Source: Mustelus asterias
Taxonomy: Eukaryota
Assembly (NCBI RefSeq): GCF_964213995.1
Contig: NC_135807.1
Location: 69,254,001 to 69,318,000, forward strand
Direction: 5' to 3'
DNA length: 64,000 nt
In this document: piece after piece, positions 6,755 to 64,000 of the stretch
Layout of the letters: every line of letters begins with the position of its first letter
How positions within the stretch are numbered: position 1 is the first letter of the stretch
The notes under the pieces: generated by a model
Seen by the model: only the letters and a program-made list of their open reading frames with translations
Told to the model about the DNA's origin: nothing
The model's database searches: none
Translations under genes and position numbers: made by a program

Positions 6755-8208
6755 TATTACAATCGCAGTTGATATAACTGGACAGGAAGATTCCAGAATG
6801 GAACTCTGGCTCAAAAGTCCCGAGCTTTTACTTTTATAAAAGGTGGAGGAACAAAGTCTCAGGATTGCTAATTATTTTTAACAAGAGAAATACCATACTC
6901 ATTTATTCCCCCCTTGGCTTCACAACTATGCACAGATTTTAAGGTTAGCACAGATTTTAAGGTTAACACAGATTACAAAGCAGATCTTAAACTACAATCC
7001 ACTCAGTAACATACAGCCTCTTTAAGCACACGCATTGGCTGGAGTCAAAAACATACACCCCTCTGAACCCGATTAGTATCCTTGGATTTCTCCTCCAAAT
7101 TCCCCGAGATGATTGTCACATGAGAGATTCCAAACTCCACTCCCAAAACACACTTAAAAATCTTCTTTCAGATTAATACTTTTCGTTCGTGTTTTGCATT
7201 CCAAAACTCAATCCATGTTTTGCAAATGAGACTTTTAAAGAAAGCCTCTGCTCCACTTTTAACAATGAATCTAGTATCCAGGTTTTGACTGCTGTACAAA
7301 CTGTTCACAATTGCTTTAACTCTCGATTCCCAGACTATTAAAATTACATCAGATTTTTTATTCATGAAGTCTGTTTTCCGACTTTAAATCTGGTTAATGC
7401 AGTTATCTTTTCGACTCAGAACACTTCTTACTCTATCTTGAATTCCTCTGAACAATACTTTAGTCTCTGTCCGCTTCAGTTGTCTTAAGACATTCTATTT
7501 GTCCCAATTCCTCTGGTTATCTGGACAGTCACTGGTTCCTTGGGAAACCTGCCTCTTTGCAGCTCCTGTCCTGTCCAGTCTTTCTCCTGGCAGAGTTGAG
7601 TTTTGCTCACTCCCTGGTGTCTTTCTTCAACTGCAATACATCCAGCTAAAACTTGAAAGCTTTTCTAACTTAAAGACCCCCAGTTGCTAAGCAGTTTATT
7701 TATGGGGCAGCACAGTGGTTAGCACTGCTGCCTCACAGAGCCAAGGATCTGGGTTCGATTCCCAGCTTGGGTCACTGTCTGTGAAGAGTTTGCACGTTCT
7801 CCCCGTGTCTGCGTGGGTTTCCTCCAGGTGCTCTGGTTTCACCCCACAATCCAAAGATGTGCATGTTAGGTGGATTGGCCATGATAAATTCTCCCTCAGT
7901 GTACCCAAACAGTCACCGGAGTGTGGCAGCTAGGGGATTTTCACAGTTACTTCATTGCAGTGTTAATGTAAGCCTACTTGTGACTAGTAAATAAACTTTT
8001 TACTTTTAATGCCATAGCCCACTCTAAGCATAATAGAAACACAGTTGGAATTGAACCAACCCCCACACACATGCTAACACCTTTGTCCAGCATGAATCTA
8101 ACTATAGGTTTTACCCTTCCAGGCACAGAAATATTAAACCCATTTAAAACTATACCTTATTTCTAATGTTTATCCATAAATGGACAAACTACCTTTGTTT
8201 TCCTAACA
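6755..8208 (-). mobile_element. Degenerate solo LTR (Gypsy-like) interrupted by a SINE
   Basis: GGAC is duplicated at 6751-6754 and 8209-8212. On minus the element reads TGTTAG...GTAATA (mutated TG..CA ends). Its U5-like end resembles the one near 32200-32350. Confidence 0.55.
7704..8000 (+). mobile_element. HE1-like tRNA-derived SINE (AATAAA-tail variant)
   Basis: Pol III A box (CAGTGGTTAGCAC) and B box (GGTTCGATTCC), conserved core GGGTTTCCTCC..GTGCTC, and tail ...GCCTACTTGTGAC..AATAAA. Confidence 0.85.
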
Positions 8209-9929
8209 GGACTTGTAGCATATGCAGAACACCTGTTTCATACCCCATTTATCAAATTATATTTGGGGAAAGATTCAATACTCAAATTGCAGAAAACTTT
8301 CCAGGTGTTTTACATGTTTTGGCTACCAGTTCTGTAGAGAAAATGAGTGTGGGTGAGGGAAAGTCCCACTTACTTGCTGCTGCCTAAGCTTCCTTTGCCC
8401 TCCCTGGACAATCCGATACTGCTTTCACCTTGTTCAAGATAACTATCACTAAAAGAACATTCCAGTTCTCTGCGACTAGGTCAGCCAATTCTGACCTGGC
8501 ATGAGACTGAATGATGTCACCCCCTGATGTGCTCCAGCCTCATTAGCAGCAGACCCCCTCCTGTCCTTTGATTTTCTCTTTCTTTTCCTTGGCCTCCCAG
8601 AAGATGTGGCCACAGAGTTAAGTGCAGTTGAAAGACTCCTGTGCGGTGGTCAGCGGGAACAAACAGCATAACCTCTCCAATCCATTCGATCGTGGGTTTC
8701 CCCCTGTCCTTGCTGCCCCTCCGATCATAGATTCTGGGTAGAATTTTTTTGGAAGAATTCCAAGTGTTGAATTCGCGTGAAAACTAGAGTAATTCATGCT
8801 GGATTTTTCAGTGGGAGTTCAGAGAAGAATCTCCCACACTCTGTGCAATGCAGAAGCCACCAGCGTGAATATCATTAAATTCCAGGGGGCGAAGCCTATT
8901 CCTACGGGAGAGGCTGAAATCAGTGCGCTGAGCGGGCCACTGTGCATTCTGACCTGTCAGTGTTGAGATCAGTGCATGTGTAGTGGCCATGCACTAACGG
9001 CCCCCCGATTGCTGGCCAGCCCTGCGACCGCTGCAATGCTGGCTATCTACCCTCCACCCCATGGCCCGTTTGCTGTCCCCCTGACCATTCCCGGGCTCAG
9101 CCTCAACCCCCGCATTCCCAGTCTGCTCCAGCTCCCCCTCCCCCCCCCGACAGCTACCACCCCTGCAGTCCCCAACCCCCCGCCCCCCAGAGTGCTGACT
9201 GCCCCAGTCCCCCTGACTGCCCCAGCCCCCCCCGATCGCTGGCCTCCCTCCTTCCCCCAACAATCCCTATGCAGAGTGGCAGCGGGACCCGCCCACCGAT
9301 CGCTCCCTTGGCACTGCCACATTAGGCTCCACCCCTATATCCCCACCCCCCCCGGCACTGCCCCATGTCCGATGGGCAGTGCCTAGGTGCCCTGGGCATT
9401 AGCACTTTGCCCCCTGGGCAGTGCCAGGGACATAGGCTGGCACTACCAGGGTGCCAATGCCCAGGGGCCACCCCTCCATCACCCAACCTCTGGGGGTGCC
9501 CTAATTGCACCCCCTCCTTCCACTCCAGCATGGTTGGGCCGCTAGTTCCCCAAAAGTGGGGATGTACGGTAATCCCCGCTGGAGTGAACCACTGGTGGGG
9601 TGGAGGGAGATGCTAGCGGGCCCGGAGACTTCAGTCCTGAGCCCCAAGCTAATCACATTCAAATGAGATTAAAATGACCATGTTAATGATCTTTGAGCCT
9701 CCCCGCCGATTTCTGGCGCGGAGCAGACGCCACCGGAAATCTGGTGCTGGGAGATGTTAGTGGGGCGCGAACGCACACTTGAACTCCATGAATCGGCCCT
9801 TGTGACAATCTTCCGCCCGCTGCGCTAGAAAATTAGGATGTGGAGATGCAGGCGTTGGACTGGAGTAAACACAGTAAGAAGTCTAACAACACCAGGTTAT
9901 AGTCCAACAGGTTTATTTGGTAGCAAAAG

Positions 9930-9968
9930 CCACGAGCTTTCGGAACAGGCTGTCCCTTCGTCAGGTAG
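9930..9968 (-). ncRNA. Minimal hammerhead ribozyme motif (inverted pLTR copy)
   Basis: Minus strand reads CUAC-CUGACGA-A-GGGACA GCC UGUUCC-GAAA-GCUC-GUGG. Confidence 0.7.
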
Positions 9969-11491
9969 GTGGGAGTTCTGATTACAAACGGCACAAAGAC
10001 ACGATCTCAATTTACATGAATAATGATTGGAATGTGAGCCTTTACAGCTAATCAAGTCTTAAAGGTCCAGACAATGTGAGTGAAAGGAACATTAAGCACA
10101 GGTTAAAGAGATGTGTATTGTCTCCAGACAGGACAGCTAGTGAGATTTAGCACATCCAGGCAGGTTGTGGGGGTTACAGATAGTGTGACATGAACCCAAT
10201 ATCCCGGTTGAGGCTGTCCTCATGTGTGCGGAACCTGGCTATCAGTCTCTGCTCAGCGACTCTGTGCTGTCGTGTGTCGTGAAGGCCGCCTTGGAGAACG
10301 CTTACCACTCACCATGGACTACTCTCCGGAATCGGTTGCATTCTTGGACACACGCATCTCCATTAAGGACGGTCACCTCAGCACTTCACTGTACCGCAAG
10401 CCCACGGATAACCTCACGATGCTCCACTTCTCCAGCTTCCACCCTAAACACGTTAAAGAAGCCATCCCCTACGGACAAGCCCTCCGTATACACAGGATCT
10501 GCTCGGATGAGGAGGATCGCAACAGACACCTCCAGACGCTGAAAGATGCCCTCATAAGAACAGGATATGGCGCTCGACTCATCAATCAACAGTTCCGACG
10601 CGCCACAGCGAAAAACCGCACCGACCTCCTCAGAAGACAAACACGGGACACGGTGGACAGAGTACCCTTCGTTGTCCAGTACTTCCCCGGAGTGGAGAAG
10701 CTACGACATCTCTTCCAGAGTCTTCAACATTTTATTGATGAAGACGAACATCTCGCCAAGGTCATCCCCACACCTTGCTTTCAAACAACCGCACAACATC
10801 AAACAGACCATTGTCCGCAGCAAACTACCCAGCCTTCAGGAGAACAGTGACCACGGCACCACACAACCCTGCCACAGCAACCTCTGCAAGACATGCCGGA
10901 TCATCGACACGGATGCCATCATCTCATGCGAAAACACCATCCACCAGTACACGGTACATACTCTTGCAACTCGGCCAACGTTGTCTACCTGTTACGCTGC
11001 AGGAAAGGATGTCCCGAGGCATGGTACATTGGGGAAATCATGCAGACGCTACGACAACGGATGAATGAACACCGCTCGACAATCACCAAGCAGGAGTGTT
11101 CTCTTCCTGTTGGGGAGCACTTCAGCGGTCACGGGCATTCAGCCTCTGATCTCTGGGTAAGCGTTCTCCAAGGCGGCCTTCACTACACACGACAGCGCAT
11201 AGTCACTGAGCAGAGACTGATAGCCAGGGTCCGCACACATGAGGACGGCCTCAACTGGGATATTGGGTTCATGTCACACTATCTGTAGCCCCCACAACCT
11301 GCCTGGATGTGCAAAATCTCACTAGCTGTCCTGTCTGGAGACAATACACATCTCTTTAACCTGTGCTTAATGCTCCACTCACATTGTCTGTACCTTTAAG
11401 ACTTGATTCGTTGTAAAGGCTCACATTCCAATCATTATTCATGTAAATTGAGTTTGTGTCTTTGTGCCCTGTTTGTAATCAGAACTCCCAC

Positions 11492-11530
11492 CCACCTGAC
11501 GAAGGGACAGCCTGTTCCGAAAGCTCGTGG
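11492..11530 (+). ncRNA. Minimal type I hammerhead ribozyme motif
   Basis: CCAC-CUGACGA-A-GGGACA GCC UGUUCC-GAAA-GCUC-GUGG: intact core, stem I CCAC/GUGG, 6-bp stem II, palindromic AGCU stem III. Confidence 0.8.
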
Positions 11531-12552
11531 TTTTTGCTACCAAATAAACCTGTTGGACTTTAACCTGGTGTTGCTAGAAAATTAGCCCCTGTCTCTGGAT
11601 GAGTGGCAAGAGCAAAAGGAGAGAACCTGTGATTCAAGGAACTGGAGCAATGACAAACTCGGGAACTGCCTGCATAATCTTGTCTCCTTCTTTTCTCCAG
11701 TAGATTGCATGCAATAAGTCTGAGCAACGTTAAGAGATGATAGCATGAGATTTTCAAATGATAGCCCTCAGCAGTACACGAACACCTGCAGCAGTGCTGG
11801 ATGACCTTTACAGATCAATCAGCATGAGGGAGAGAGGAACTGGCAAAGATAGCATCACATGTAGCAACTGGAAAACCACTTTGGCAAGAAAATCATCTTG
11901 ACAAACAAACTACCTGAAATCAAAGAACAAAAGGAAGAACTTGTCTCTATCCAGTGTGTAAGAGACAGAATCTGTGTTTGGAGGAGAAGCTCTGTCTTTC
12001 CAACACCTGCTGTTCCTCTAATCGGTGCTCTGCTGTCAATTCCTGCTCTCAGCATTTGACAGCTTTTTTAAAAACACACAGTTGTTGAGAGCAGGAAGGA
12101 GCTTTGTACAGATTTGTAGTTGACTGACTTTTAAAACTGTCAGTTTAACTGCAGTGACTGACACTTCAAGAGTTGGTCATTGACTGCAAAATGCTTTGGA
12201 ATGTGTTGTGATCATGGAAGGTGCTACATAAATCCAATACTTTATTATCTGACTCGGAATTTGCACCAACATTTAACACATTCTCTCGAGAAATGCAAAC
12301 ATCACATTGTATTATACATGATACAAATTTCAACTCATTGATGGTGTGTTTCATTACAACCTCTTGGGCAGTTGATAACAGATGGTAATTATTTTTGCTT
12401 GACTCTATTTTAGAGATACGTCCGATTGGCTGATTTCAGGGTTGTTACTGAGAGAATAGCTTGAAGCTTTCCATACCTCTGGCAGTTTGAGGAGGTGGAT
12501 AGGTCATGTTCTAAGCTGGCTGCTCAGCCTGGACAACAGCAAGACACCATTT

Positions 12553-15135: not shown

Positions 15136-15325
15136 ATCACATCAGCTATGATTTTATTTCTATTATTATTTTGTTTCATTTATATGTAGTTTCATGGTGT
15201 AATTTGGGCGGGTGTGGTGAATTTTGGAACACGATCTAATTTCCTCGGGCCTCTGTCCGATGTGTGGGAGGGGAAAATCACCATTCCTGTATCAGCTCTT
15301 TCTCAGGCTGACATCATGGAAAGAG

Positions 15326-15414
15326 CCGGCTCCAAGTGGAGAGGATCTCCAAGAAGATCGCGCATATCGACACAGACTTCAAGTTTCCCCAGTCCAACGC
15401 CGGCATCTCCACAT
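15326..15414 (+). mobile_element. ~90-bp rearranged Penelope-derived mini-insertion
   Basis: Contains CCCCAGTCCAACGCCGGCATCTCCACAT, shared with the PLE termini at 9837 and 38153. 14-bp TSD CATCATGGAAAGAG at 15312-15325 and 15415-15428. Confidence 0.7.
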
Positions 15415-16373
15415 CATCATGGAAAGAGGCAGGACTGGCTGAAGGATGTCACCAAATGGAACTCTTGCCAGTCTCACCTTTGATGTCCTAATGTAATGTA
15501 AGCTTGAAAGAAGCAAATTTACAATGCTTGCAAGATTATGAAAGTGGGGCCCACCCGATTTTTAAAGGCTAGTTTCCTCTCAGAAAGTGACTTACTACTG
15601 TAAGGAAATTTGACATTTATGAAAACGATATATTTTGTGACCAGCTTCACTCTTACACCAAACTTGCATCTCTGTTGCCAGTGCCACTGTGTTAATATTT
15701 GTGTCACAATTTCATAAAACCTGATTTAGGGGGACAATGTCTGCCTTTAAAAAGATAGGAAAATGACAAAAAATAATCAGTTCAACCATGGGTGATAACT
15801 TTGAAAGATCATGATCAATTTAGCAAATAAGTCAGTGATTATAATTGCTGAATATTAATTAGCTTGAGAAAAAACAGACTCCAAAGTATTCTTTTACTCT
15901 CTTCCTTTTGCTTGAATCAAGGTTAAGAATACATATTTTCTGAGAAAAATTCTCCGCCAAGATCTAAATGATTTATTAAGAAGTGATGTCCTCAAAGACC
16001 ATAACCCGTAAATGTAAGTTGTTCTTCACTTCTGACAACTTGAGCTGGTGTGAAGAGTTTAATTTGAAACATTTAGATATACGAGGAAGTTTAAATGCAT
16101 CGTGTTTTAAAAATCTTATACCTAGCTGCAGCATGAGCATGTGTTATCATTTAAAATACGGATCTTAATTAAATTTGTTTATGAGTCGTGAATTTCCAAT
16201 GTTCTGCTGTCTGTGCAATCTTGCTGCAGGATATAAAATTAATAACATCAGTGATACAAACCTGTGCACAACAGGCTGGATTTGGCAACTGACATTTTTA
16301 GTCAGTGAGAGGCAGCTGTCTTGATGACAACACAACGCACAGTTTTATGGAAAGATTATTCAAACTAGATAAC

Positions 16374-22402: not shown

Positions 22403-23641
22403 CTCACAGAATACAACATCTCGTGCCGTAAGAAGGGTGTGTGGTTTCTGTATGGATTCCCTTTGCTGATGTCTCTGAGGTTTCCCACACTGACTGAGCT
22501 CTGCAGGATTCTCCATTGGAAGCTTTCCCTGAAAAATCAGAAGAAGGTAAGTGTTTTTTTTATGTCTGATCAGAGTCAGAAATAAGTATTCCCCTCCTAA
22601 TCTGGTAGATTTAGACCAATACATTTAACTAATGGCAGATAGGTTGAATATTATTGTTAGCTTTAGGTTCCAGTTAACTCAGGAAACATCGGTTCAATGC
22701 ACTACTTTATGAGTCAAAGTCCGTGCAAACTCAGTTGAACATTAATGACCTTTGGGGATGCATGACGCAGTTTCAAAACTTGGATAAAAACAGAAAGTTC
22801 TGATTAAACTCAACAGGTCTGGCAGCATCAGTAGCGAGAAACAGAGTTAGTGTTTCGGGACTAAATGATCCTTCCACAGAACTGAATCAAGGTAGAAGTG
22901 TACAGAATTATATAATTGGAACGAGAGTGGAAGATGTGGGGCAGAATAGAAGACCAGGATTTTGGGGCAAATCCAGAAGCATTGCAACCACAGCCTTGAG
23001 TATCTTGAGTAGTGTTGAGTCACCAGATCCTTGAGCCTCCCTGAATGTATGTGGTAGCTCACCAAAAACCTCCAAGATCAAGCCACAGCACGACCACAAA
23101 CACTGTCAGAGTAGAAAGCAAAAGTAAATCAAAAGCACCCCAAGTGCAAGTTGGTTGCCTGATCCTTCAATAAAGCTAGTGAGATGTGCTGCTGACTCAT
23201 GTTCAATTGAGGGTGATTAGTACCTGTATTCAGTAGACATTTGCAGACCAAGTTTATGAAGCATGCATCAAATCTGCTAGAATGGCTTGCAGGACATATC
23301 AAAAATGACTGGCAGCATAACCAGCACCTTTTTAGGACTTTGGGGATTTTGTAGCACCAAGACCAGCTCAAAATCACTATCAGATTCTCCAACAGGGGTC
23401 AAATGGAAATTCATGTGTAATTAAATGTGTGCACATTAGCAGAGGAAACTAAATGTTCACCTGAAAAGTGAAAAGGAAACAAGCAAGGATACTAAACATT
23501 CTATGAACCAAAGTAGTCCCATTGTTGTCTATATTTTCACACAACTGATGCATGATTCACCTCATACAACATAGAGAAATAACAACTGAAAGTCCAATCT
23601 GAACAAGAATCAACATATATGCAGCTCCTAAACAATGATGT

Positions 23642-25657
23642 CTGGATGACTCGTGATATTGCGGCCCTGGTCAAGAAGAAGAAAGAGGCACATGACATGC
23701 ATAGGCAGCTGGGATCAAGTGAATCTCTTGAAGAGTATAGGGGGTGTAGGTGTAGAGTTAAGAGAGAAATCAGGAGAGCAAAAAGGAGACACGAAATTGT
23801 TTTGGCAGATAAGGCAAAAGAGAATCCAAAGAGCTTCTACAAATACATAAAGGGCAAAAGAGTAACAAGGGAGAGAGTAGGGCCTCTTAAGGATCAACAA
23901 GGTCATCTATATGCAGATCCACAAGAGATGGGTGAGATCCTAAATGAATATTTCTCATCAGTATTTACTGTTGAGAAAAGCATGGATGTTAGTGAACTTG
24001 GGGAAATAAATAGTGATGTCTTGAGGAGTGTACATATAACAGAGAAAGAGGTGCTGGAAGTCTTAAAGCGCATCAAGGTAGATAAATCGCCGGGACCTGA
24101 TGAAGTATATCCCAGGACGTTGTGGGAGGCTAGGGAGGAAATTGCGGGTCCCCTAGCCGAGATATTTGAATCATCGATAGTCACAGGTGAGGTGCCTGAA
24201 GATTGGAGAGTGGCAAATGTTGTGCCTTTGTTTAAAAAGGGCTGCAGGGAAAAGCCTGGCAACGACAGGCCAGTGAGCCTCACATCTGTGGTGGGTAAAT
24301 TGTTGGAAGGTATTTTGAGAGACAGGATCTACAGGCATTTAGAGACGCAAGGACTGATTAGGGACAGTCAGCATGGCTTTGTGAGTGGAAAATCATGTTT
24401 CACAAATTTAATTGAGTTTTTTGAAGGGGTAGCCAAGAAGGTAGATGAGGGCAGTGCAGTTGATGTTGTCTACATGGACTTTAGCAAGGCCTTTGACAAG
24501 GTACCGCATGGTAGGTTGTTGCATAAAGTTAAATCTCACGGGATCCAGGGTGAGGTATCTAAATGGATACAAAATTGACTTCTTGACAGAAGCCAGAGGA
24601 TGGTTGTAGAGAGTTGTTTTTCAAACTGGAGGTCTGTGACCAGCGGTGTGCCTCAGGGATCAGTGCTGGGCCCACTGTTATTTGTCATTTATATTAATGA
24701 TTTGGATGAGAATATAGGGGGCATGGTTAGTAAGTTTGCAGATGACACCAAGATTGGTGGCATAGTAGACAGTGAAGAAAGTTATCTCCAATTGCAACGG
24801 GATCTTGATCAATTGGGCCAGTGGGCTGACGAATGGCAGATGGAGTTTAATTTAGACAAATGCGAGGTGATGCATTTTGGTAGATTGAACCAGGGCAGGA
24901 CTTACTCAGTTAATGGTAGGGCGTTGGGGAGAGTTACAGAACAAAGAGATCTAGGGGTACATGTTCATAGCTCCTTGAAAGTGGAGTCACAGGTGGACAG
25001 AGTGGTGAAGAAGGTATTTGGCATGCTTGGTTTCATCGGTCAGAACATTGAATACGGGAGTTGGGATGTCTTGTTGAAGTTGTACAAGACGTTGGTAAGG
25101 CCGCACTTGGAATACTGTGTGCAATTCTGGTCACCCTATTATAGAAAGAATATTATTAAACTAGAAAGAGTGCAGAAAAGATTTACTAGGATGCTACCGG
25201 GACTTGATGGATTGAGTTAAAAGGAGAGGCTGAATAGACTGGGACTTTTTTCTCTGGAGCATAGGAGGCTGAGGGGTGACCTTATAGAGGTCCATAAAAT
25301 AATGAGGGGCATAGACAAGGTAGATAGTTAATATTTTTTCCCAAAGGTAGTGGAGTCTAAAACTAGAGGGCATAGGTTTAAGGTGAGAGGGGAGAGATGC
25401 AAAAGTGTCCAGAGGGGCAATGTTTTCACACAGAGGGTGGTGAGTGTCTGGAACAAGCTGCCAGAGGTAGTAGTAGAGGCGGGTACAATTTTATCTTTTA
25501 AAAAGCATTTAGATAGTTACAAGGGTACGATGGGTATCGAGGGATATGGGCCAAATGCAGGCAATTGGGATTAGCTTAGGGATTTTTAAAAAAAAGGCGG
25601 CATGGACAAGTTGGGCCGAAGGGCCTGTTTCCATGCTGTAAACCTCTATGACTCTAT
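23642..25657 (+). mobile_element. 5'-truncated CR1 LINE (RT domain and 3' tail)
   Basis: ORFs 23619..24578 and 24600..25220 contain [31 protein letters not shown] and KFADDTK, with in-frame stops. Tail (CTATGA)n; candidate TSD AATGATGT at 23634 and 25658. Confidence 0.95.
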
Positions 25658-32145: not shown

Positions 32146-32379
32146 GTAACTGTAATCTCGTGTGCTTAAATTTTCTTACCTTCTTACTAATAAACCTTAT
32201 AATTTTTAAAATCCCGAAAGTGTTACTGGACTTCTTGCTGCTGAGATGAGTACATTTTCAGAAAACATTTAAAAAGTGTGGCCCATATGCCAAGTTTCCC
32301 ACTGAGATTTGGTTTGCCCAGCAATTTGCATCTGCTGTGATCATAGCAATACAATTGCATCTGCTGTGATCATAGCAAT

Positions 32380-32648
32380 TACAGGCTGACCTGTCTGAAG
32401 ACAATACACATCTCTTTAACCTGTGCTTAATGCTGTCTCCACTCACATTGTTTGTTACTTTAAGACTTGATTATCTGTAAAGACTGCATTCCAATCATTA
32501 TTCTGTAAATTGAGTTTGTGTCTCTGTATGCCCTGTTTGTGAGCAGATCTCCACTCCACCTGATGAAGGGGCAGTGCTCCGAAAGCTAGTGGCATTTGCT
32601 ACCAACTAAACCTGTTGGACTTTAACCTGGTGTTGTTAAACTTCTTAC
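32380..32648 (+). mobile_element. Penelope pLTR fragment with hammerhead motif at 32556-32592
   Basis: Homologous to 11320-11572. Motif CCAC-CUGAUGA-A-GGGGC AGU GCUCC-GAAA-GCUA-GUGG. TSD TGATCATAGCAAT at 32367-32379 and 32649-32661. Confidence 0.85.
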
Positions 32649-32857
32649 TGATCATAGCAATACCACAGGGCCAAATCTGCAACTGCCTCTATCTGTTCCC
32701 CCACTGAGCTGCTTGCTTCTGTCAGCAAACACACACAGATAGATCAAACAAAAGGACATTCTAACCAAGGCTCCACCCTAAATCACTATCTTTATGGCAA
32801 TATGCCTTCCTTTGGGGTGGGCACAAACATAAATGTAAACATATTAGTTTACCTTCA

Positions 32858-34595: not shown

Positions 34596-34801
34596 CGTGA
34601 TGTAAACACAGTAAGAGTTTTAACAACACCAGGTTAAAGTCCAACAGGTTTATTTGGTAGCAAATGCCATTAGCTTTCGGAGTGCTGCTCCTTCGTCAGA
34701 TATCCACTCCATCTGATGAAGGAGCAGTGCTCCGAAAGCTAATGGCATTTGCTACCAAATAAACCTGTTGGACTTTAACCTGATGTTGTTAAAACTCTTA
34801 C
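34596..34801. mobile_element. ~200-bp palindromic Penelope-derived mini element with a hammerhead motif on each strand
   Basis: 34610-34701 is the reverse complement of 34711-34803. Motifs at 34667-34702 (-) and 34709-34745 (+). TSD TGAGGAGCAGC at 34585-34595 and 34802-34812. Confidence 0.88.
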
Positions 34802-34959
34802 TGAGGAGCAGCTGAGCAGAGCAGCGGGAAAACTTTAAAAGGAGCGACCCAGCGAACCTTCCCCTTCACACAGTCCTGAGGCAGAGGTCCTGAGGTAAAG
34901 TCAAGATTCAAAAGAGACGAAGGGCAAGTAGAAGCTCTGATTGGGTGAGTACAGACTTT

Positions 34960-36981: not shown

Positions 36982-37296
36982 GCGAGTGCACATTTTTGTT
37001 ACTGTCTCTGTTTTAGATTCTTGGCAAAACCTTTTGTAGCGGTAGTCCCTTTGCAGTCAAACAAAGATCCATTAGTAAATCTTAGAATAATAGAAATTTA
37101 CTTCACAGGAAGGGACTAAAGAGCCCAAGCTAAGCTTTCATTTAGTCTCATTCCCATGGCCTTTCCTCATAATATTTCCACATCTTTTTTCCACATCTTT
37201 ATCCACTTTCCTTTTAAATGCTATTATGAATTCTGCTCCCATCAGTGTTTCTGACAAAGCTTTCCAGGGATGATTCGTCTGGCCACTATACTCTGT

Positions 37297-38219
37297 AAGA
37301 AGTCTCACAACACCAGGTTAAAGTCCAACAGGTTTATTTGGTAGCAAAATCCACAAGCTTTCGGAGTGCTGCCCCTTCATCAGGTGAGTGGGAGTTCTGT
37401 TCACAAACAGGGCATATAAAGACACAAACTCAATTTACAAAATAATGGTTGGAATGCGAGTCTTTATAGGTAATCAAGTCTTAAAGGTACAGACAATGTG
37501 AGTGGAGAGAGGGTTAAGCACAGGTTAAAGAGATGTGTATTGTCTCCAAACAGGACAGTTAGTGAGATTTTGCAATCCCAGACAAGTCATGGGAGTTACA
37601 GATAGTGTAACATGAACCCAAGATCCAGGTTGAGGCCGTCCTCGCGTGCGGAACTTGGCTATCAGTGGCTTCCTGGGCTTGCAAAATCTCACTAACTGTC
37701 CTGTCTGGTGACCATACACATCTCTTTAACCTGTGCTTAACAGTTAGTGAGATTTTGCAAGCCCAGGAAGCCACTGATAGCCAAGTTCCGCGCACATGAG
37801 GACGGCCTCAACCGGGATCTTGGGTTCATGTTACACTATCTGTAACTCCCACGACTTGTCTGGGATTGCAAAATCTCACTAACTGCCCTGTCTGGAGACA
37901 ATGCACATCTCTTTAACCTGTGCTTAACGTTCGCTCCACTCACATTGTCTGTACCTTTAAGACTTGATTACCTATAAAGACTCGCATTCCAACCATTATT
38001 TTGTAAATTGAGTTTGTCTTCATATGCCCTGTTTGTGAACAGAGCTCCCACTTACCTGACGAAGGAGCAGCGCTCCGAAAGCTAATGGATTTTGCTACCA
38101 AATAAACCTGTTGGACTTTAACCTGGTGTTGTGAGACTTCTTACTGTGTTTACCCCAGTCCAACACTGGCATCTCCACATCATCACTGGCATCAACACTG
38201 GCATCTCCACATCATCACT
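37297..38219. mobile_element. ~850-bp fold-back Penelope-derived element with hammerhead motifs on both strands
   Basis: Arm 37295-37699 is the reverse complement of 37740-38144. Motifs at 37351-37387 (-) and 38052-38088 (+). Candidate TSD TACTCTGT at 37289 and 38220. Confidence 0.88.
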
Positions 38220-39414: not shown

Positions 39415-42224
39415 ATCTTCTCTCTGCCCTTTTTAAGGCATTGTCACCTTCCCTGCTGTGTGGTGTTCAGAATTGTCCACCATGCTCCAGCTGAGGCCAA
39501 GCCAGTGCCCTACAAAATTCTCACATTACCTCTTTATTTCTATATTCTGTTTTTCTATTTATGAACATAAGTTGTCAATGCACTTTTTTAACCACCTTAT
39601 CAATTTGCTGTGTCACCTTTTAAGGATTTGTATATGGGCACCAAGTTCTCTCTGCTCATCTACACTTTCCAAACCCTTGCCATTTGCATGATATCATGTT
39701 CGTCCTTCCGAAGTGCATCCACTTTGAATTCCATCTGCCATCCTTCAATCCATCTCACTATCCTTGTATGTTACCCTGAAACCTTATTTCCTAAAGGTAG
39801 TATTGGGATGACCTTATTTGCCCTCCTTGTGTCATAAGATTTATGATTTATTGAGGCAAGTCCATTTTCTAATTAACCTAATGCACCTATTTAAGCTTGA
39901 TTTAATTAATGTTCCACCGCTGATGGCCAAAAAAGCTATAAAGATTCACAGGACTTCATTTATTTTAGAGAAAGCCTATTTTCAGATTAATTTGACTTGC
40001 ATAACTGTTAAGGTCCAATCAGAATTGTTAAGTAATCTGTTCTCTGTACTAGCTGCATAAGGATATTTTGCAAGAGGTTTTTTCTTTCTCTTCCCTGTCA
40101 TTTACACTGTTATAATGACAAAGTAAAAATGAGTCACAAAATTCATTAAATATCCCTTATTAGATTCTCTAACATTTGAGCCACTTGGCCTAGAAGTTAC
40201 GGAGAACTGAAATACTTTGCAGCAATATCGACAAATGAACTGGAACAGAAATAGCAAAATTAAGATATATTGTAAATTAGAAACCATTTAAATTACAAGG
40301 GAAGGTGTAGAAGCTCAAGGTAAATAAAACCTTCAGCTTTAACAATTTATCAATGTACACAGATCCAAAGAGATTTTGATGTAATAGACAGTATAAGTAC
40401 AGTGGCTGGAACATGCATAGACTTTACAAAAGTGTTTTGCAAGTTACCACATGCAAGATTACCATAGAAGATTAAGTCATTTGTAAGTAAGTGTTCGCAA
40501 ACAGGATTAAAGTTGGTTAGACGGAAGAAAGCAGAGGAGGAGTTAAAGCAGTTTACAAAGTAATTGGAATAGGGTTGTGATGTCCCACAGCATACTGGGA
40601 AGATTCTGTTCACGGTGTGGACTAATGATTTGGACATAAACCTCAGGGGACGGCAATTGTCATTGGCAAATTATATCAAAATAGAGAGTGTAGTTAATAG
40701 TTCCAAAGAAACTGCGAAGGGGATATTGACAGGATGGAGCAATGGCTTAAAAAGTGCCAGATGGAATTTAATGTCTGTGGTTAAGCAATAACAGCAGTAT
40801 TTACAAATCTGCTAAAAATTTCCACTATTCCAGGAGCATCCACCCTCGCATTCAACACTAAGTGTGAGAGGTTTAAGAACTTCTTTAACGCTGCGATTGG
40901 AACCATTTGATCAGTTTCCTGTGCCACTTCAATCAAGGGCCAGAGAAAGAAATCTCAGGCCCTGGTGCTCTCCTTTTTCCAGGCCCCTTACCTACCCCCA
41001 CAAAATTTTCCCTTTAACCTTCTCCCTTCCCCCTCAGTCATACATGTTACCTTTGTCCTTTTGAGATTCACCAGTCAATTTACCCAACAATCACAGAAAG
41101 ATCATAGTAAAATGATAATACCCATTCTTGACATCTGGTTACAAATAATATATATGCAGCCTGGTGAATCATTAGTATTGAGAGCAGCAACAATAGAAAG
41201 GACTTTTAGTTTGAGTGCACCCCATAGGTAATCTCACCATGATTATTAAATAAGCCACAGTACAGATTTTATTTCAACAGCATCATGCTATATTGTTAAT
41301 TTGATCTCCTCAGTTATTTATAACACTGTGACAATGATGACATTGACCCTGGTGAGTGCCTCAGATGTCCTGCACATTGCACCATATGTACGGAGTGACA
41401 ATAAATACATGTTTGAGGGAAACATTCAATCGCCTCAATCCAGCTTTCAAGGATACCTTTCAGGTTTTGTTTTACATATTTTGACTACCCATTCTATATA
41501 AAAAAGCAAGACCACTTCCATGCTGCAGCTCACATTGTTTCATTGTTGTGAAATGGAAAGAGTACGGGAGGAGGAGCAGAATCCCATTCACTTGCCATTG
41601 TCTGAGCTTCCTTCTCCCTCCCTGTACACAGTACTCACCTCGATCAAGATAACTCTACCGCTAAAAGAACATTTCAGTTCCCTAGAAGTGGCTTGGCTGG
41701 GTCAGACCCGGTGTCAGGCTAAGTGAAAGCTTCCTCGGGCCTGCTCTGGCCTCTATCGGCAGAGACTCACTCCTGTTCTTTAATTTTCTATTTCTTCTCC
41801 TTGGCCTCTCGGGAGATGTTGTCATAAAGAGTTATGTGCAGTTGAAAGATTCTTGTATAGTGGTGAATGGGAATGACCAGAATAACTCATCCAGCCCATC
41901 CAATCATAGGTTCCCCTATCCTTGCTTCACCTCCAATCATAGATTCTGTCTTTAGATGGCAAGAGGAAGAGAACCTTTGATTTGAGGAACAATGACAAAC
42001 TTGGGAACCGAATGCACGGTCTTGTCTCATTGCTTTCCCCAGTAGATTGCATTCAGCAAGTCTTGCCAATTTCAAAAAAAGATAGCCCTCAGCAGCACAC
42101 CGACACTGTTGTTCTGTTCATTCACTTGTTCATTTCTTTTTCATACACAAAATGGAAGTGCAGTGCCAGATGATTTTTGCACACCAATCAGCCTGAGGGA
42201 GAGAGGAACAGACATAATAATAAT

Positions 42225-43440
42225 GGGGAACACAGAACTGGCAGAGACACTCAATCAATATTTTGCTTTGGTCTTCACAGTGGAGGACACTAGAGCCATC
42301 CCAATAGTAACAGGTAATGCAGAGGTTGTGGAAAAGGAGGAACTTAAAACAATCACCATCACTAGGGAAAAAGCGCTGAGCAATCTATTCAGATTAGAGG
42401 CAGACAAATCCCCAGGACCTGATGACCTACATCCTGGGGTCTTAAAGGAAGCGACAGCAGAAATAGTGGAGGCATTGGTTATAATATTCCCAAATTCCAA
42501 GGTTCCAGTGGATTGGAAAAAGGCTAATGTAATGCGCCTGGTTATAAAAGCAGGAAACTATCGACCAGTTAATTTAATGTTTGTTGTTGGGAAACTGTTG
42601 GAATCCATTATTAAGGAAGTAGTAATGGGATATTTGGAAAGTCAAAATACAATCCATCAGAGTCAACATGGTTTTATAAAGGGTAAATCGTGTTTGACTC
42701 GTTTGCTGGAGTTCTTTGAAGATGTAACAAGCAAAGTGGATAATGAGGGTCCTGTAGATGTAGTGTATCTGGACTTCCAAAAGGCATTTGATAAGGTGCC
42801 ACACAAGGTTTATATACAAGGAATAATCCCACGGGATTGGGGCAATATACTATCTTGGATTGAGTATTGTCTAACCAACAGAAAGCAGAGAGTGGTCATC
42901 CAGCAGTAAGGATACACCTGTAGCAAGCAATAAAAGAACTAACTTTACAAAGTAAATCAAAGAAAATGTTTAATAAAGAAACTCCATTGCACCACCACTT
43001 GGGCCATGCCCTGGGCCACACATGCTTCTCACAATCCCCGTCTGCTTTCTATTTATACCAGGTCAGCTGACCCAAACAAGAGAGAGTTGGGATAAATGGG
43101 TCTTTTTCTGGGTTGCCAAGCTGTTACGAGTGATATGCCACAGGATTTGGTCCTTGGGAGCCCCAACTATTTACAATCTATTGGTTTCACAGGTCGGCGC
43201 AACATCTAGGGCCGAAGGGCCTGTACTGCGCTGTTATGTTCTATGTTCTAAATATTAATGACTTGGATGCAGGGATGGAATGTACTATAGCCAAATTTGC
43301 AGATGACACGAAAATAGTTGGGAAAGCAAGTTGCAATGAGGAAATAAGAAATTTACAAATGAATATGGACAGGTTAGATGAGTGAGCCAAAATTTGGCAG
43401 ATGGAGTTTTACATGGGTAAGTGTGAGGTGATCCATTTGT
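42225..43440 (+). mobile_element. Decayed CR1 RT fragment with two nested small insertions
   Basis: ORF 42109..42909 has KSPGPD, QHGFIKGKSCLT and DFQKAFDKVPH; it resumes after 43087 (KFADDT near 43295). Confidence 0.85.
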
Positions 43441-43592: not shown

Positions 43593-44887
43593 ATGGGGGA
43601 GATTCTCCCAAAAAAGTTCTAAGTGTCGAATTTGCGTAAAAACTGGAGTAAATCGCACTTTTTTTTTCAGATTGAGTGTGCACTGCAGAGTGCACTAGCG
43701 TGATTCACTCCAGAAATCAGAGGGCGGAGCCTATTCCCACTGGAGAGGCCGGAAGCATAGCTCTGAACAGGACACTGTGCATGCGCTGATCTGTCAGCAC
43801 CTCGATCTTCCACCCTGACCCCCCCCCCTCCCCCGCCAGTTGTCTGTCCCCTCCCCCACACCTCGATGGCCAGCCCCGATCACTGGCGTCCCTCTCTCAA
43901 CCGAGATATTGGGTTTATGTCACACTATTTCACATAAATATTTCTGCTTTTTTCCTCCTGAGTCTTTATCATGCGATCCTAGAATCAGAATTTATGTCAC
44001 ACTATTTGTAACTCCCACAGTTGCGTGGACCTGCAGAGTTTCACTGGCTGTCTTGTCTGGAGACAATACACATCTTTTTAGCCTGTCTTGATGCTCTCTC
44101 CACTCCCATTGTTTTGTTTCTTAAAGACTGGATTAGTTGTAAGTATTCGCATTCCAACCATTATTCATGTAAATTGAGTCTGTGTCTTATAAGTTCTGTT
44201 TGTGAACAGAATTCCCACTCACCTGAAGAAGGGGCTCAGAGCCTCGAAAGCTTGTGTGGCTTTTGCTACCAAATAAACCTGTTGGACTTTAACCTGGTGT
44301 TGTTAAACTTCTTACTGTGTCCCTCTCTCTACCATTGATCCCGACTGCAGAGTGACAACGGGACCCTCCACACCCCTCAGATGCCATGCCCCTTGGCACT
44401 GCCCCATGCCTGGTGGCTCAGTGCCAAGATGCCTCCTGAGCATTGGTACTTTGCCCCTTGGGCAGTGCCAGGCTGGCACTGCCACGGTGGCAATCCCCAG
44501 GGGGCACACCCTGACCTCCTGGGGGGCCTCAGTTGCCTCCCTATCACTCCAGCAGGGTAGGGCCGCCAACTCCCCGTAAGTGGGGAGCTATACTGAACCG
44601 CACTGGAGTGAAATGCTCTTGGCGGCGGGGGGAGAGGCTAGCGGACCCGGAGATTTCAGTCCCGGGCCCACTAGTAGGATTTAAGTTGTATTAAAATTAG
44701 CGGCTGCATACATTAGGCAGCTCCACGCCGATTTCTGGCGCAGAGCTGACGGTGCAAGAAATCCACTGCTGGGAGACACGCGGAGGCCGTGGCACCCAGC
44801 AGGGAGCCTGCGAAACCGCCTCCGCTAGGGTCTCCCGGCTTGCTGCGCTCAAAAAGCAAAGCAACGGGATGGGAGAATCTCCCCCAT
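43593..44887. mobile_element. GC-rich MITE-like element with perfect 18-bp terminal inverted repeats
   Basis: ATGGGGGAGATTCTCCCA at 43593-43610 and TGGGAGAATCTCCCCCAT at 44870-44887. Confidence 0.75.
43899..44318 (+). mobile_element. Penelope pLTR fragment with hammerhead motif at 44219-44257
   Basis: Motif CAC-CUGAAGA-A-GGGGCU CAG AGCCUC-GAAA-GCUU-GUG. TSD GTCCCTCTCTC at 43888-43898 and 44319-44329. Confidence 0.82.
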
Positions 44888-55150: not shown

Positions 55151-55346
55151 CGTGCAGCACAAAACAGTAATGTGTTAAAGACAGCTCCCATTTGTTTGCA
55201 TTGCTCGCAAAAGTGGTATTTTTGCTTATACTGAGACAAATGCAATTCTTTCTGAGCTACGATGAGCAAGAATGCTAATGGTAAATATTGATTTCACTTA
55301 AATTCCCTGTATAACATAAAACAATATTCCATTTTGTCTTCCACAG

Positions 55347-55957
55347 GTATTTGGTCATGTAGATTTTACTGATGCTAAATATGGGGTAAGTTATGAAGAG
55401 ATACATCAAATTTTCAACAGGACCCTACAGGGATTCTCCTTGGGCCCTCTGACTTCAAGTATGATGATAAATCTTCAGTTTGTAATGTTACAAAACAAGA
55501 AATCATCAGACTCCAGCAAATGGACCACCGAAAGCCTTTGTGCATTTTCAAACAGGATAATGTTTGAAGCTGGGTACTTAACACTCTTTGGAAAAAATGA
55601 AAAAGCAATGAAAGAAAACAATACTGAAAAGGTAAAGGCACAGTGTGCTGCCATTCAGTCTGTCATGAAGAATTTTACAGTGTTTGACAATTTATTTCCT
55701 GTTTTAGCTGGTGGCATTCCGTTATTGTTTGTCAAAGCTGCCAAGCAATCAAGAATGGCCCTAGCACAAGCATTATTGCACAATAACCTACGGCAGAATG
55801 ACAGTAAATCTGACCTCATAGAGGAAAGAATGAACCTTTTTGATCGTTCACCTGCACTTGATGAACTCAGCAAGGGGAAGACTCATGTCACAATGCTGTG
55901 GGCTTCACAGGCTAATACGCTTCCAGCTACCTTTTGGAGTGTTTATTATTTAATAAG
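55347..55957 (+). CDS. CYP7A1-like exon 3 (611 nt, includes I helix)
   Basis: ttccacAG|GTA TTT GGT CAT; VFGH...TLQG...MFEAGYLTLFG...MLWASQANTLPATFWS..LI(R)|GTACTG. Confidence 0.95.
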
Positions 55958-57705
55958 GTACTGTTACTCTCAACTTTCATAATAGAAGTTTGATCCACTT
56001 GTAGCAATTTTAAACCTGAACACTCTGAACATAATCTGTCTGTTTTATTGCCATAATCATTTATGCCTCTTTGCTTCAACCAGCTTTCTAATGAATTCAT
56101 GCTGACATGGGAATTATGCTTTTTTTTAAACCTTCACCGCCTGTCTGTAATCTGCTGCAATGGATAGCCTGTCCATTGTAAATAGGGTGAAATCAGGCAG
56201 GTACTATAATGGGTGGGCAATCTGCTCTGCCAGAATACTATGAGTGGTGAAGACAAGGATTTTTTTCATGGTTTCTGCTGGAATCACAAACTCTGATAAT
56301 GTATTCCACAAGCTCACAACCATTTTCCCAGCCTACAAAAGGTAGGTTCCAGTGTGTGTGGAGTAGGAAAGTCCCAGAAAATGACATTGGATCAGGATCC
56401 TGACATCATTCTACCTAATTCTGGCTTTCCCCAGGGTGGTTGAAGGTGAGTGGGAATCCTGCCTTGGATCTGTTGGGTAAGAAATATGGAAATGTTTCAG
56501 CTAATTAAGAGGGCAATTAAGACCTGCTTCAAGCCTGAATCCTAGCCTTTCCAGCTTATCAGCAACATCCCAGGGTTTCCAAGGTGAATGTACAATGGAA
56601 GGGGCTTTTTCAGTGACAAGCTGGAAGCCTTTGATCAGTTACACTGAAGAGCTGCAACTATAGCTATTGACAGCCAGTTATTCAAAGCATTTCTCTGAGT
56701 GAATCTCCCTAACCAATGGAATTAAGAATTCAGAAATAGACAGAGGATGGTCTGAGAAGGATGGTAAGTTAAGAGTGGGCGAATTTGGGGACAAATCAGG
56801 TATTTAAAGGGAATGAATGATTGGATTAAGTGAGATAAAAAGTGATAGACAGGAAAAGTAAGAAAAATAATTTTAATTTTAATAAAATATCCCAAAACAA
56901 CTCACTACAGAAGAATGCACTTATTCGTTGAATGGTGCTGGCTGGGCCGGCATTTCTTGTCCATCCGTGGGGGCATTGCTGTGGATCTGGAGTCATGTGT
57001 AGGTCAAACCAGGTAAGGATGGCAGATTTCCTTCCCTAAAGGACATTAGTTAACCCCAGATGGGTTTTACAACAATCAACAATGGTTTCATGGTCATCAG
57101 TAGATTCTGAATTCCAGATTTTTATTGAATTCTAATTTCATCATCTGCCATGGTGAGATTCGAACCTGGGTCCCCAGAGCATTACCCTGGGTCTCTGGAT
57201 TACCAGTCCAGAGCCAATACCACTACACCACCGCCTCCCCAATTGTTCATTAATTGCTCAATTTCTGGGCCAGAGAGATAGATTGCAAACATTAACGATC
57301 ATCATGTTGTTAAACAAGGGGCTGCTGGGGATGATGCTTAAGGTGTTAATTTCTAAACCTGTTGAACTTAATTTTCAATTGATCTGAAAATGTAGCAACT
57401 TCATGAAAATGACAGGGAGATTAAAGGTGAGATTCCATTTCTGTAAAGCCGGTGATGGAGCAGTGCAATTTGTGCAACAACTTGTGGCGATTTGCAATTC
57501 TTTCTCGCCACAAGGTTAATTTGCACACTAATAATGAGATGTGTCACTAGCATGTCATTATTGTTTTGCAGCAAATTCTGGGACCACTAAGGTTTGGTGA
57601 CAGGGAATGCATCAGATTTTTAATAACTGGATAGAGAACTATCATACTTGCTGTCTGTGACATATTATTCACACCATCATTTATCTGGTTCTACATAATC
57701 TGCAG

Positions 57706-61515: not shown

Positions 61516-62764
61516 GTAAGTAAATTATCAAAATTGTGCACATTAAATTCTAGTGTGAAAAATGTTGAATATTACATTTCCAAAACATACTCGAGTTAAG
61601 TATTATCATGGATTTTAGTCTTTTGAGAACAATTTTTGGGGCTTTATCAAAGCTCTCTGTCTTATGCCTCCACAATGAGACACAATTTAGGAAGAAGAGT
61701 GCTGGTCCTGATGACGAGACAGGAAACAGGCACCATGTCCTTTTTAATGTCAGAAGCTGCAAAGTCTACAATCACAATTCAAATTATTAAAGTGTGTGTT
61801 GGGCACATGTCGCACGTTCAATCGCAAGGTGGGAAATTGCACTCAGCAGCCTGTTTCTTCCAAGAGCTGCTGTCAGCGTCACAACAAGACTGTAAAGGAA
61901 AAATTAAGGTAGTTAAAGGGAAAGAAATACTGAGGGCACAATGGTGCCGGGGTGCTGAGACACTCTTATAGAATGCACATGTATTTGGATATCACAATAT
62001 ATTTTATTCAAGTAGTTGGTTGATAGTACAGAACTTCAGTATTCCTGAAAAATGCTTTTTGTCTTGTACTCATCAGGACATTTCTCAAGAAAATACCAAT
62101 GTCAACATATTTTATTCATTTGATTACTGTGTACACGATGTTTATGTGTCGGAATGTCTTCTTTCAGAGGGCATATTGTACCATCATGCTTCATGTTTGG
62201 CAGTCATTGCTGAATGAAGGGGACTGAGGGACATCTCGCCTGTTAGCAACAATGTGGCAGTATGTTAGAGGTTAGGCTTTATCAGATAGTAATGTGTGTG
62301 GTTTCTATTCCCAAGGCAATGCGACATGACTGCTCAATACAGTATCTGCTCACCGACCCATGAATGACTTTCCAAGAAAATTGGCAGAAGTCACCGGTGA
62401 GCATGAGAAGCGATGTTATGCTCATGCAATCATGGTCTGGACAATGAGGGCAAGAAAAGGAGAGAGAGCTCATGATAGCTTCATTGACTTCAATGTCACT
62501 GCAAATCTGATATCTTTATCAGGGGGCCATCTCTTCCCATCCTATCTGAGAACAGTGAACTCCCCCTGATCTTCTAGGAGGTGGAGGATGTGTGTAACGA
62601 GAGAGACCCTGGTGGAGGTTGGCAGAAGTGGGTGCACAATAGGAGCATGCAAAGGTTTGCAGGTGAGAAAATTATGATCAGGGAGGTGCATCAAAATGAT
62701 TGAAGATGAGTTTGTCCTTGAGAGCCTAGGCACGTCCTTGCATGACCATGACCTCTGGGAGAGT

Positions 62765-64000
62765 TATAGAATCAGAGTTTTACAGCGTGGGAACAGGCCC
62801 TTCGGCCCAACTTGTCCATGCCACTTTATTTTAAACCCTTAAGCTAGTCCCAATTGCCTGCATTTGGCTCATATATCTCTATACCCATCTTACCCATGAA
62901 ACTGTCTAAATGCTTTTTAAAAGACAAAATTGTACCAACCTCTACTATCTCTGGCAGCTTGTTCCAGACACTCACCACCCTCTGTGTGAAAAAATTGCCC
63001 CTCTGGATCCTTTTGTATCTCTCCCCTCTCACCTTAAAACTATGCCCTCTAGTTTTAGACTCCTATACCTTTGGGAAAAAATATTGACTATCTAGGTGAT
63101 CTATGCCCCTCATTATTTTATAGACCTCTATAAGATCACCCCTCAGCCTCCTACGCTCCAGAGAAAGAAGTCCCAGTCTATCCAGCCTCTCCTTATAACT
63201 CAAACCATCAAGTCCCAGTAGCATCCTAGTCAGTCTTTTCTGCACTCTTTCTAGTTTAATAATATCCTTTCTATAATAGGGTGACCAGAACTGTACGCAG
63301 TATTCCAAGTGTGGCCTTGCCAATGTCTTGTACAACTTTGACACAATGTCCCAACTCATGTATTCAGTGTTCTGACCAATGAAACCAAGCATGCCGAATG
63401 CCTTCTTCATCACTCTGTCCACCTGTGACCCCACTTTCAAGGAGCTATGAACCTGTACCCCTAGATCTCTTTGTTCTGTAACTCTCCCCAATGCCCTACC
63501 ATTAACTGAATAAGTCCTGCCCTGGTTCAATTTACCAAAAATGCATCACCTCGCATTTATCAAAATTAAACTCCATCTGCCATTTGTCAGCCCACTGCCT
63601 CTATTGATCAAGATGCTGTTGTAATCTGAGATAACCTTCTTCACTTTCCACTATGCCACCAATTTTGGTGTCATCTGCAAACTTACTAACCATGCCTTCT
63701 ATATTCTCATCCAAATCATTAATATAAATGACAAATAACAGTGGACCCAGCACTGATCCCTGAGGCACACCGCTGGTCACAGGTCTCCAGTTTGAAAAAC
63801 AACCCTCTACAACCACCTTCTGTCATCAAGCCAATTTTGTATCCATTTAGATACCTCACCCTGGATCCCATGAGATTTAACTTTATGCAACAACCTACCA
63901 TGCGGTACCTTGTCAAAGATCTTGCTAAAGTCCATGTAGGCAACATCAACTGCACTGCCCTCATCTCCCTTCTTGGTTACCCCTTGAAAAAACTCAATTA
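62765..64000 (-). mobile_element. CR1 LINE 3' part, same subfamily as 23642-25657, running off the window
   Basis: [17 protein letters not shown] and LEYCVQFWSP motifs with the CR1 tail at 62765-62850. Confidence 0.93.

Follow-up and report, generated by a model that had tools for sequence, protein, structure and literature searches.

Minimal hammerhead motifs in the pLTR of an abundant shark Penelope-like element, with possible genomic traces of cleavage and of paired priming

The window (the whole 64-kb stretch of DNA that was analysed) contains eight motifs with the hammerhead core. A check of the window sequence agreed with the sequence-only reading in both the letters and the places of all eight, the minus-strand positions in that reading being the low ends of the motifs. 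The motifs belong to five insertions of a Penelope-like element (PLE), four of which are flanked by target duplications of 11–15 bp; a sixth insertion of the same family is without a hammerhead. The features are listed below.

9837..11573: insertion 1, one PLE event, with the inverted arm and its long (tail) end on the left, the 5'-truncated body and a shortened end on the right; flanked by a 13-bp target duplication (9824-9836, 11573-11585)
9930..9968, minus strand: minimal hammerhead motif, inverted left arm of insertion 1; C3 at 9964, predicted cut after 9934
10309..11288, plus strand: frameshifted remnant of the PLE ORF (RT end, Cys linker, GIY-YIG-like endonuclease), upstream of the 11492 motif
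11492..11530, plus strand: minimal type I hammerhead motif, right arm of insertion 1; C3 at 11496, predicted cut after 11526
15326..15417, plus strand: sixth insertion of the family, without hammerhead; an ORF-start-like piece with part of the tail behind it; target duplication of 14 bp
about 32353-32649: insertion 2, single arm with the short end; 15-bp target duplication
32556..32592, plus strand: hammerhead motif of insertion 2; C3 at 32560, predicted cut after 32588
34596-34802: insertion 3, inverted pair; 11-bp target duplication
34667..34703, minus strand: hammerhead motif, left arm of insertion 3, with the inversion junction replacing part of the 5' stem I strand; C3 at 34699, predicted cut after 34671
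34709..34745, plus strand: hammerhead motif, right arm of insertion 3; C3 at 34713, predicted cut after 34741
about 37287-38190: insertion 4, inverted pair, short end on the left and long end on the right
37351..37387, minus strand: hammerhead motif, left arm (short end) of insertion 4; C3 at 37383, predicted cut after 37355
38052..38088, plus strand: hammerhead motif, right arm (long end) of insertion 4, with a C.A mismatch as the first stem I pair; C3 at 38056, predicted cut after 38084
38085..38185, plus strand: segment that begins at the predicted cut and runs past the short end as far as the long end
43899-44319: insertion 5, single arm with the short end; 11-bp target duplication
44219..44257, plus strand: hammerhead motif of insertion 5, whose subfamily was used for the cut-site count; C3 at 44223, predicted cut after 44253

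Counting the eight copies as independent instances was therefore an overstatement: they represent five insertion events, namely three inverted pairs and two single arms. A target duplication was looked for at insertion 4 (about 37287-38190) and none was found. The sixth insertion (about 90 bp; window 15312-15428), whose ORF-start-like piece was judged by comparison with the sampled copy L132, suggests a template jump on the same RNA, and the sampled stretch L103 has a filler resembling its own. The tail of about 36 nt within 38085..38185 is predicted to fold back onto the conserved stretch before the short end, with a z-score of only −0.2. AATAAA is found 16 bases past the predicted cut (window 11543-11548), as in nearly all copies. 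In several subfamilies the first letters of stem I (window 37379-37392, 44215-44228 and related copies), read on the opposite strand, match the splice-donor consensus well; at such a copy number they could affect host introns. Elsewhere in the window, a 220-codon frame on the plus strand (55320-55982) matches cytochrome P450 (E 7e-7), is long for one exon and is possibly a retrocopy, while LINE-type RT remnants and a remnant of a GDSL esterase-like ORF1 are located at 23583-25220, 42046-42909, 62764-64000 and 1821-2453.

The assignment of the host to a shark PLE was upheld by its RT, CX4CxxC linker and GIY-YIG-like end. RVT_1 matches the host ORF above the cut-off (E 9e-8); the Pfam GIY-YIG match is weak (E 0.084), with the VVY...YIG motif present, and relatives of the host protein carry PF01541. 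The C-x4-C-x2-C linker precedes the endonuclease in the sampled copy L131, and longer copies, L131 and L132 among them, have frames reaching 784 codons that hold RT motifs, the linker and the GIY-YIG-like end; among the copies sampled, none was found to be full-length with the pLTR-ORF junction. The shark assignment is supported because the best named relatives are shark proteins (Scyliorhinus, Heptranchias, Mustelus) at 83–89% identity, whereas proteins of other animals show about 47% or less. Judged by these protein comparisons, the family spans distant shark orders. Its domain layout marks the host as an endonuclease-bearing PLE of the Neptune/Nematis type, for which the available text of PMC8557442 gives an RT, a CX2-5CxxC linker and GIY-YIG. 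In the window, as in 14/14 long copies, the motif lies downstream of the ORF, i.e. in the pLTR, and the two 3' ends of the element come 60–100 nt after it. Beyond the long end there is a conserved ATG, probably the start codon of the ORF. In one sampled stretch (L140, 3959-4166 and 6303-6450) the tail and its flank are repeated in inverted orientation at the 5' end of a long copy, an inverted duplication larger than usual. Selenocysteine in the ORF was considered, given one TGA in nearly every match, and was rejected, as this TGA lies in the shifted frame of a frameshifted query.

A descriptor independent of the family recovered seven of the eight window motifs (mean over 50 shuffles, 0.02); the 38052 copy was missed owing to its C.A mismatch. 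In 769 kb of the genome (77 evenly spaced 10-kb stretches) the same descriptor gave 37 matches versus 0–2 in five shuffles, and all but two (35/37) plainly belong to the same PLE family. A match at position 7840 of the sampled stretch L074 has a different stem II and is possibly the hammerhead of another PLE family. The Rfam hammerhead models, which the sequence-only reading had proposed for comparison, found no match in the window, either at the gathering score or at E up to 10. The exact core pattern occurs 127,051 times in the 3.68-Gb genome (reversed-pattern control, 0), i.e. 34.5 per Mb, and 157 sampled stretches gave 31 motifs per Mb; a 26-mer just downstream of the motif has 180,883 genome matches. 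The figure of about one motif per 8 kb proposed earlier does not hold genome-wide, where there is one per 29 kb; the density in the window (125 per Mb) is 3.6 times the genome-wide value.

Column counts were made on 44 independent sampled copies picked by their flanks, and for comparison the aligned flank of 36 copies was used. Individual dead copies decay neutrally; therefore selection was tested between subfamilies. It had been proposed that the core be compared with the flanking pLTR, and at the subfamily level the core proved the more conserved: shared non-CpG variants affect 0 of 13 core columns and 33 of 84 flank columns (Fisher p=0.004). An ungapped flank count (32/36 columns) was inflated by indels and is superseded by the aligned one. 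Private changes are as frequent in the core as in the flank. The claim that the core is invariant except at N7 and H17 is valid for the window (8/8), but elsewhere only 31 of the 44 independent copies have an intact core. These alignments support selection on the core at the level of subfamilies, while individual genomic copies appear to decay neutrally, mostly without a function of their own.

The variation within the motif follows the hammerhead fold. N7 is A in 16, C in 16 and U in 11 of the 44 copies; H17 is A in 8, C in 10 and U in 25, and never G. U at H17 makes a poor cleavage triplet. An extra A follows A9 in 44/44 copies, G10.1 is present in 43/44, and position 11.1 is C in 38 and a CpG-type T in 6. 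The proposed covariation of stem I was found in one pair, the first, which is C-G in 28, U-A in 10, U-G in 1 and broken or gapped in 5 of the 44. These figures count copies, and the compensatory change may go back to one event in a single lineage. The fourth pair is broken in 21/44. Stem II, said to vary while staying paired, is mostly paired, but its changes are mostly one-sided (G-C/G-U, A-U/G-U), and its pair 5 is mismatched in 6 of 39 copies. Helix I has 3–4 bp and helix II 5–6 bp (4 bp in decayed copies). The reduction of stem III to the AGCU palindrome was likewise borne out, with G/C at 15.2/16.2 in 42 of the 44. Folding energy did not prove useful as a mark of the motif: the predicted folds are no more stable than those of shuffled sequences (z from −1.1 to 0.2). 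The helix III self-duplex is predicted at −3.9 to −4.9 kcal/mol, and in a free dimer model the intermolecular pairing goes via stems II and I rather than helix III.

The motif could instead be a relic or a chance likeness, conserved by overlap with another signal, with the excess of copy starts described below produced by the sequence bias of end joining. The stretch just downstream is about as conserved as the core (variants in 6/49 columns, in copies picked by that very stretch), and palindromes such as AAGCTT and CCATGG attract junctions. However, the variation is confined to tolerated positions, the stem I pair is compensatory, and the same architecture recurs across animal phyla according to the available text of PMC4209133; we regard this explanation as very improbable.

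Our main reading, to which we assign a probability of roughly 0.6, is that these are hammerhead folds of the minimal type I class, residing in the pLTR of an abundant shark PLE and copied with each truncated insertion, and that a minority of the element's RNA molecules is likely cleaved by them after H17, in dimeric form or together with the protein of the element. The dimers would likely pair through the AGCU palindrome, or the protein would assist the cleavage. Reverse transcription would start at two ends, the short and the long one. Most templates would remain uncut or be religated, so that most copies retain the whole motif, and the ribozyme-cut templates would yield copies of 60–100 bp starting at the cut. 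In the portions of the literature available to us, related PLE hammerheads cleave weakly as dimers (PMC4209133), and the hammerhead of an anole element cleaves only with protein (PMC11167929).

Arm ends were studied on 165 matches reaching the 3' part, selected from 274 initial matches. Opposite-strand matches inside the pLTR came from rearranged reference copies and were dropped. Arms stop about 32 (short end) or about 69 bases (long end) past a fixed anchor, the difference being the known tail. Both ends act as reverse-transcription starts, because each of them also occurs alone with a target duplication. Among 68 unpaired arms, 37 are short, 28 long and 3 other, some with a tiny inverted piece of the tail at the 5' junction. 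Among the 44 inverted pairs sampled, 39 combine a long and a short end, five combine a long end with an unscorable shorter one, and none is long-long or short-short. All scorable sampled pairs (39/39) thus have one 3' end of each kind; the window pair at 34596-34802 scored as short-short, and its left arm resembles the tail with an internal deletion. A target duplication of 11–14 bp accompanies 33 of the 44 pairs. The 5' ends of the two arms lie within 15 nt of each other in 22 of 31 measurable pairs, against 7.8 expected, a count reached by 0 of 20,000 permutations; in these 31 pairs the long arm is the shorter one in 16 and the short arm in 4. The long-plus-short ends point to coordinated priming of both target strands, and we infer that a single complex would start on them from the two sites, using a template that has one 5' end. 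Copying by fold-back, proposed for inverted copies (PMC3846280, as far as its available text goes), explains the shared 5' end equally well, but not the stop of the second arm at the short end. An origin of the twin arms from two RNAs is without support because twins are more alike (94–95%) than separate insertions (84–93%).

Copies starting at the predicted cut were counted by 5'-end patterns that demand three non-matching letters upstream of a given base. For the subfamily of the 44219 motif the bases were the cut, −3 (same chance factor as the cut) and +1, with 1,148, 125 and 274 matches in the genome, respectively, and 2,822, 307 and 976 after correction for chance. AAA or AAG precedes the cut in 47 of the first 100 cut-site matches listed (a by-eye count) versus 9% by chance; these matches may be small deletions rather than 5' ends. 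Removal of the suspect upstream words (deletions or point mutants; 47 and 29 per 100 matches listed) leaves about 1,650 starts at the cut and about 824 at +1, an excess of about 5-fold over −3 and about 2-fold over +1. In the group of the 34709 motif, 306 starts were counted at the cut, 331 at −2 and 71 at +2 (1,217, 759 and 303 when chance-corrected), giving an excess over −2 of only 1.6-fold; many matches of this group are fold-back palindromes, and many of those at −2 are fold-backs at 0 or −1. Of 97 sampled arms of the counted subfamilies, 88 are intact, 5 have their start at the cut or no more than about two bases from it, and 4 are otherwise changed. A per-base profile of 207 sampled arms gave 7 starts within −2..+1 against about 4 expected (p=0.14), a difference not significant in this small sample. 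The excess at the cut is real in the counts, of the order of 2- to 9-fold; cleavage, stalling or junction bias may lie behind it. Copies starting at the predicted cut are a possible fossil of cleavage in vivo. A dip in RNA depth over the motif with a rise after the cut, seen on contigs in four RNA-like runs, was discarded: three large, probably-DNA runs show the same dip, which is therefore attributed to subfamily diversity.

The same excess would arise if the fold were selected without cutting in vivo, as a structural signal for RNA dimerisation or protein loading, and reverse transcriptase stalled before helix III; a stall before U16.1 would likewise give ends at −1 or 0. As many as 79 of 135 sampled arms span the whole motif. 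According to the available parts of two papers, the class has low or no activity in vitro (PMC4209133) and ribozyme mutants insert unimpaired in vitro (PMC11167929), and in the anole element no RNA reads end at the cut and cleavage is dispensable for insertion in vitro (PMC11167929). Against this, a structural signal would not need every catalytic base fixed or H17 avoiding G (43/43), and the start counts drop steeply three bases upstream of the cut. We consider this explanation unlikely. Less probable still is the circle model put forward in 2014, in which almost every template would be cut and then religated; copies would retain the motif because reverse transcriptase reads across the sealed junction, and its slips there would leave small deletions and subfamily indels at the cut. 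The share of AAA/AAG before the cut, five times that expected by chance, fits a loss of 3–4 bases beside it, and subfamily indels lie just past the cut, one of them a 7-nt duplication across it. But none of nine non-intact sampled copies is such a deletion with the remaining motif in place, and the copies are single or inverted, not head-to-tail. The 7-nt tandem duplication itself (L070:678-740 and the minus arm of L114) is the apparent origin of younger subfamilies.

Six insertions (L156, L175, L208, L086, L117 and L224) start six bases before C3, where about one is expected per base (p=0.0008 before correction for 88 positions). All six are preceded by G (p=0.0006), which in L208 also fits the target duplication, and five come from older subfamilies. 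These starts may mark a capped transcription start; if so, the ribozyme would decap the element's own mRNA.

Returning to the reading with cleavage, we tentatively suggest, at somewhat less than even odds, that the PLE reaction has left a fossil record in the genome. The thousands of insertions starting at the hammerhead cut would be the first genomic sign of a minimal PLE hammerhead cleaving in vivo, and the strict use of both start sites in each inverted insertion, one per target strand, would be that expected of a dimeric enzyme on one RNA with a shared 5' end; the cluster six bases before C3 may mark its capped start. The matter is of interest given the low activity in vitro and the lack of RNA ends at the cut in the one study made on an active element. 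With more than 127,000 cores in several subfamilies, cleavage in vivo becomes addressable by base-by-base counts of 5' ends, and the long-plus-short rule constrains how the PLE enzyme builds inverted insertions.

The minimal PLE hammerhead class has been in print since 2014, and the motif itself is ordinary for PLEs. All sequence features of the class given in the available text of Cervera and De la Pena (2014; PMC4209133) are present here, which agrees with the identity proposed from the sequence: the same core with an extra base between 9 and 10.1 and G10.1-C11.1, a short helix I, a palindromic 15.2/16.2 without loop 3, helix II above 4 bp, location in the pLTR, opposite-strand pairs 100–700 bp apart, and many families per genome. 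That text, two supplement files included, names no cartilaginous fish and does not describe an excess of starts at the cut; it reports about 4,000 hammerheads in coelacanth and about 9,000 in Xenopus against at least 127,051 cores here, under different search rules, and helix II has 5–6 bp in our family. A search by title and abstract, mostly of journals open without subscription, returned no paper on shark PLE hammerheads, cut-site truncation or twin priming.

PAc, a Poseidon element of the green anole (Frangieh et al. 2024; PMC11167929, available text), likewise has a hammerhead upstream of two internal RT start sites bracketing the tail, and both target strands are cut and extended there too. 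It differs in belonging to the Poseidon clade without the Cys linker and in an ORF starting inside the ribozyme, and the accessible account reports neither a difference in start site between the strands nor RNA ends at the cut. Non-LTR retrozymes (bioRxiv 10.64898/2026.07.22.740005, seen in part) have type I hammerheads that derive from the terminal repeats of PLEs, and one chondrichthyan genome is among those reported to carry them. They are head-to-tail non-coding arrays, whereas the shark motifs belong to a coding element and sit in its single or inverted remnants; no head-to-tail hammerhead repeats were found in the window or in the sampled copies, where single or inverted arms are joined to ORF remnants. 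Penelope, Adineta and Naiad elements (PMC3846280, PMC8557442) share the inverted 5'-truncated copy in one target duplication and the 30–40 bp tail at one end. In the available portions of these papers the tail is called, in qualitative terms, optional or often one-ended, whereas here 39/39 scorable pairs are long-plus-short and 22/31 have the 5' ends of their arms within 15 nt. The copy number and the two genomic signatures, starts at the cut and the long-plus-short rule, are the less ordinary part of the shark family.
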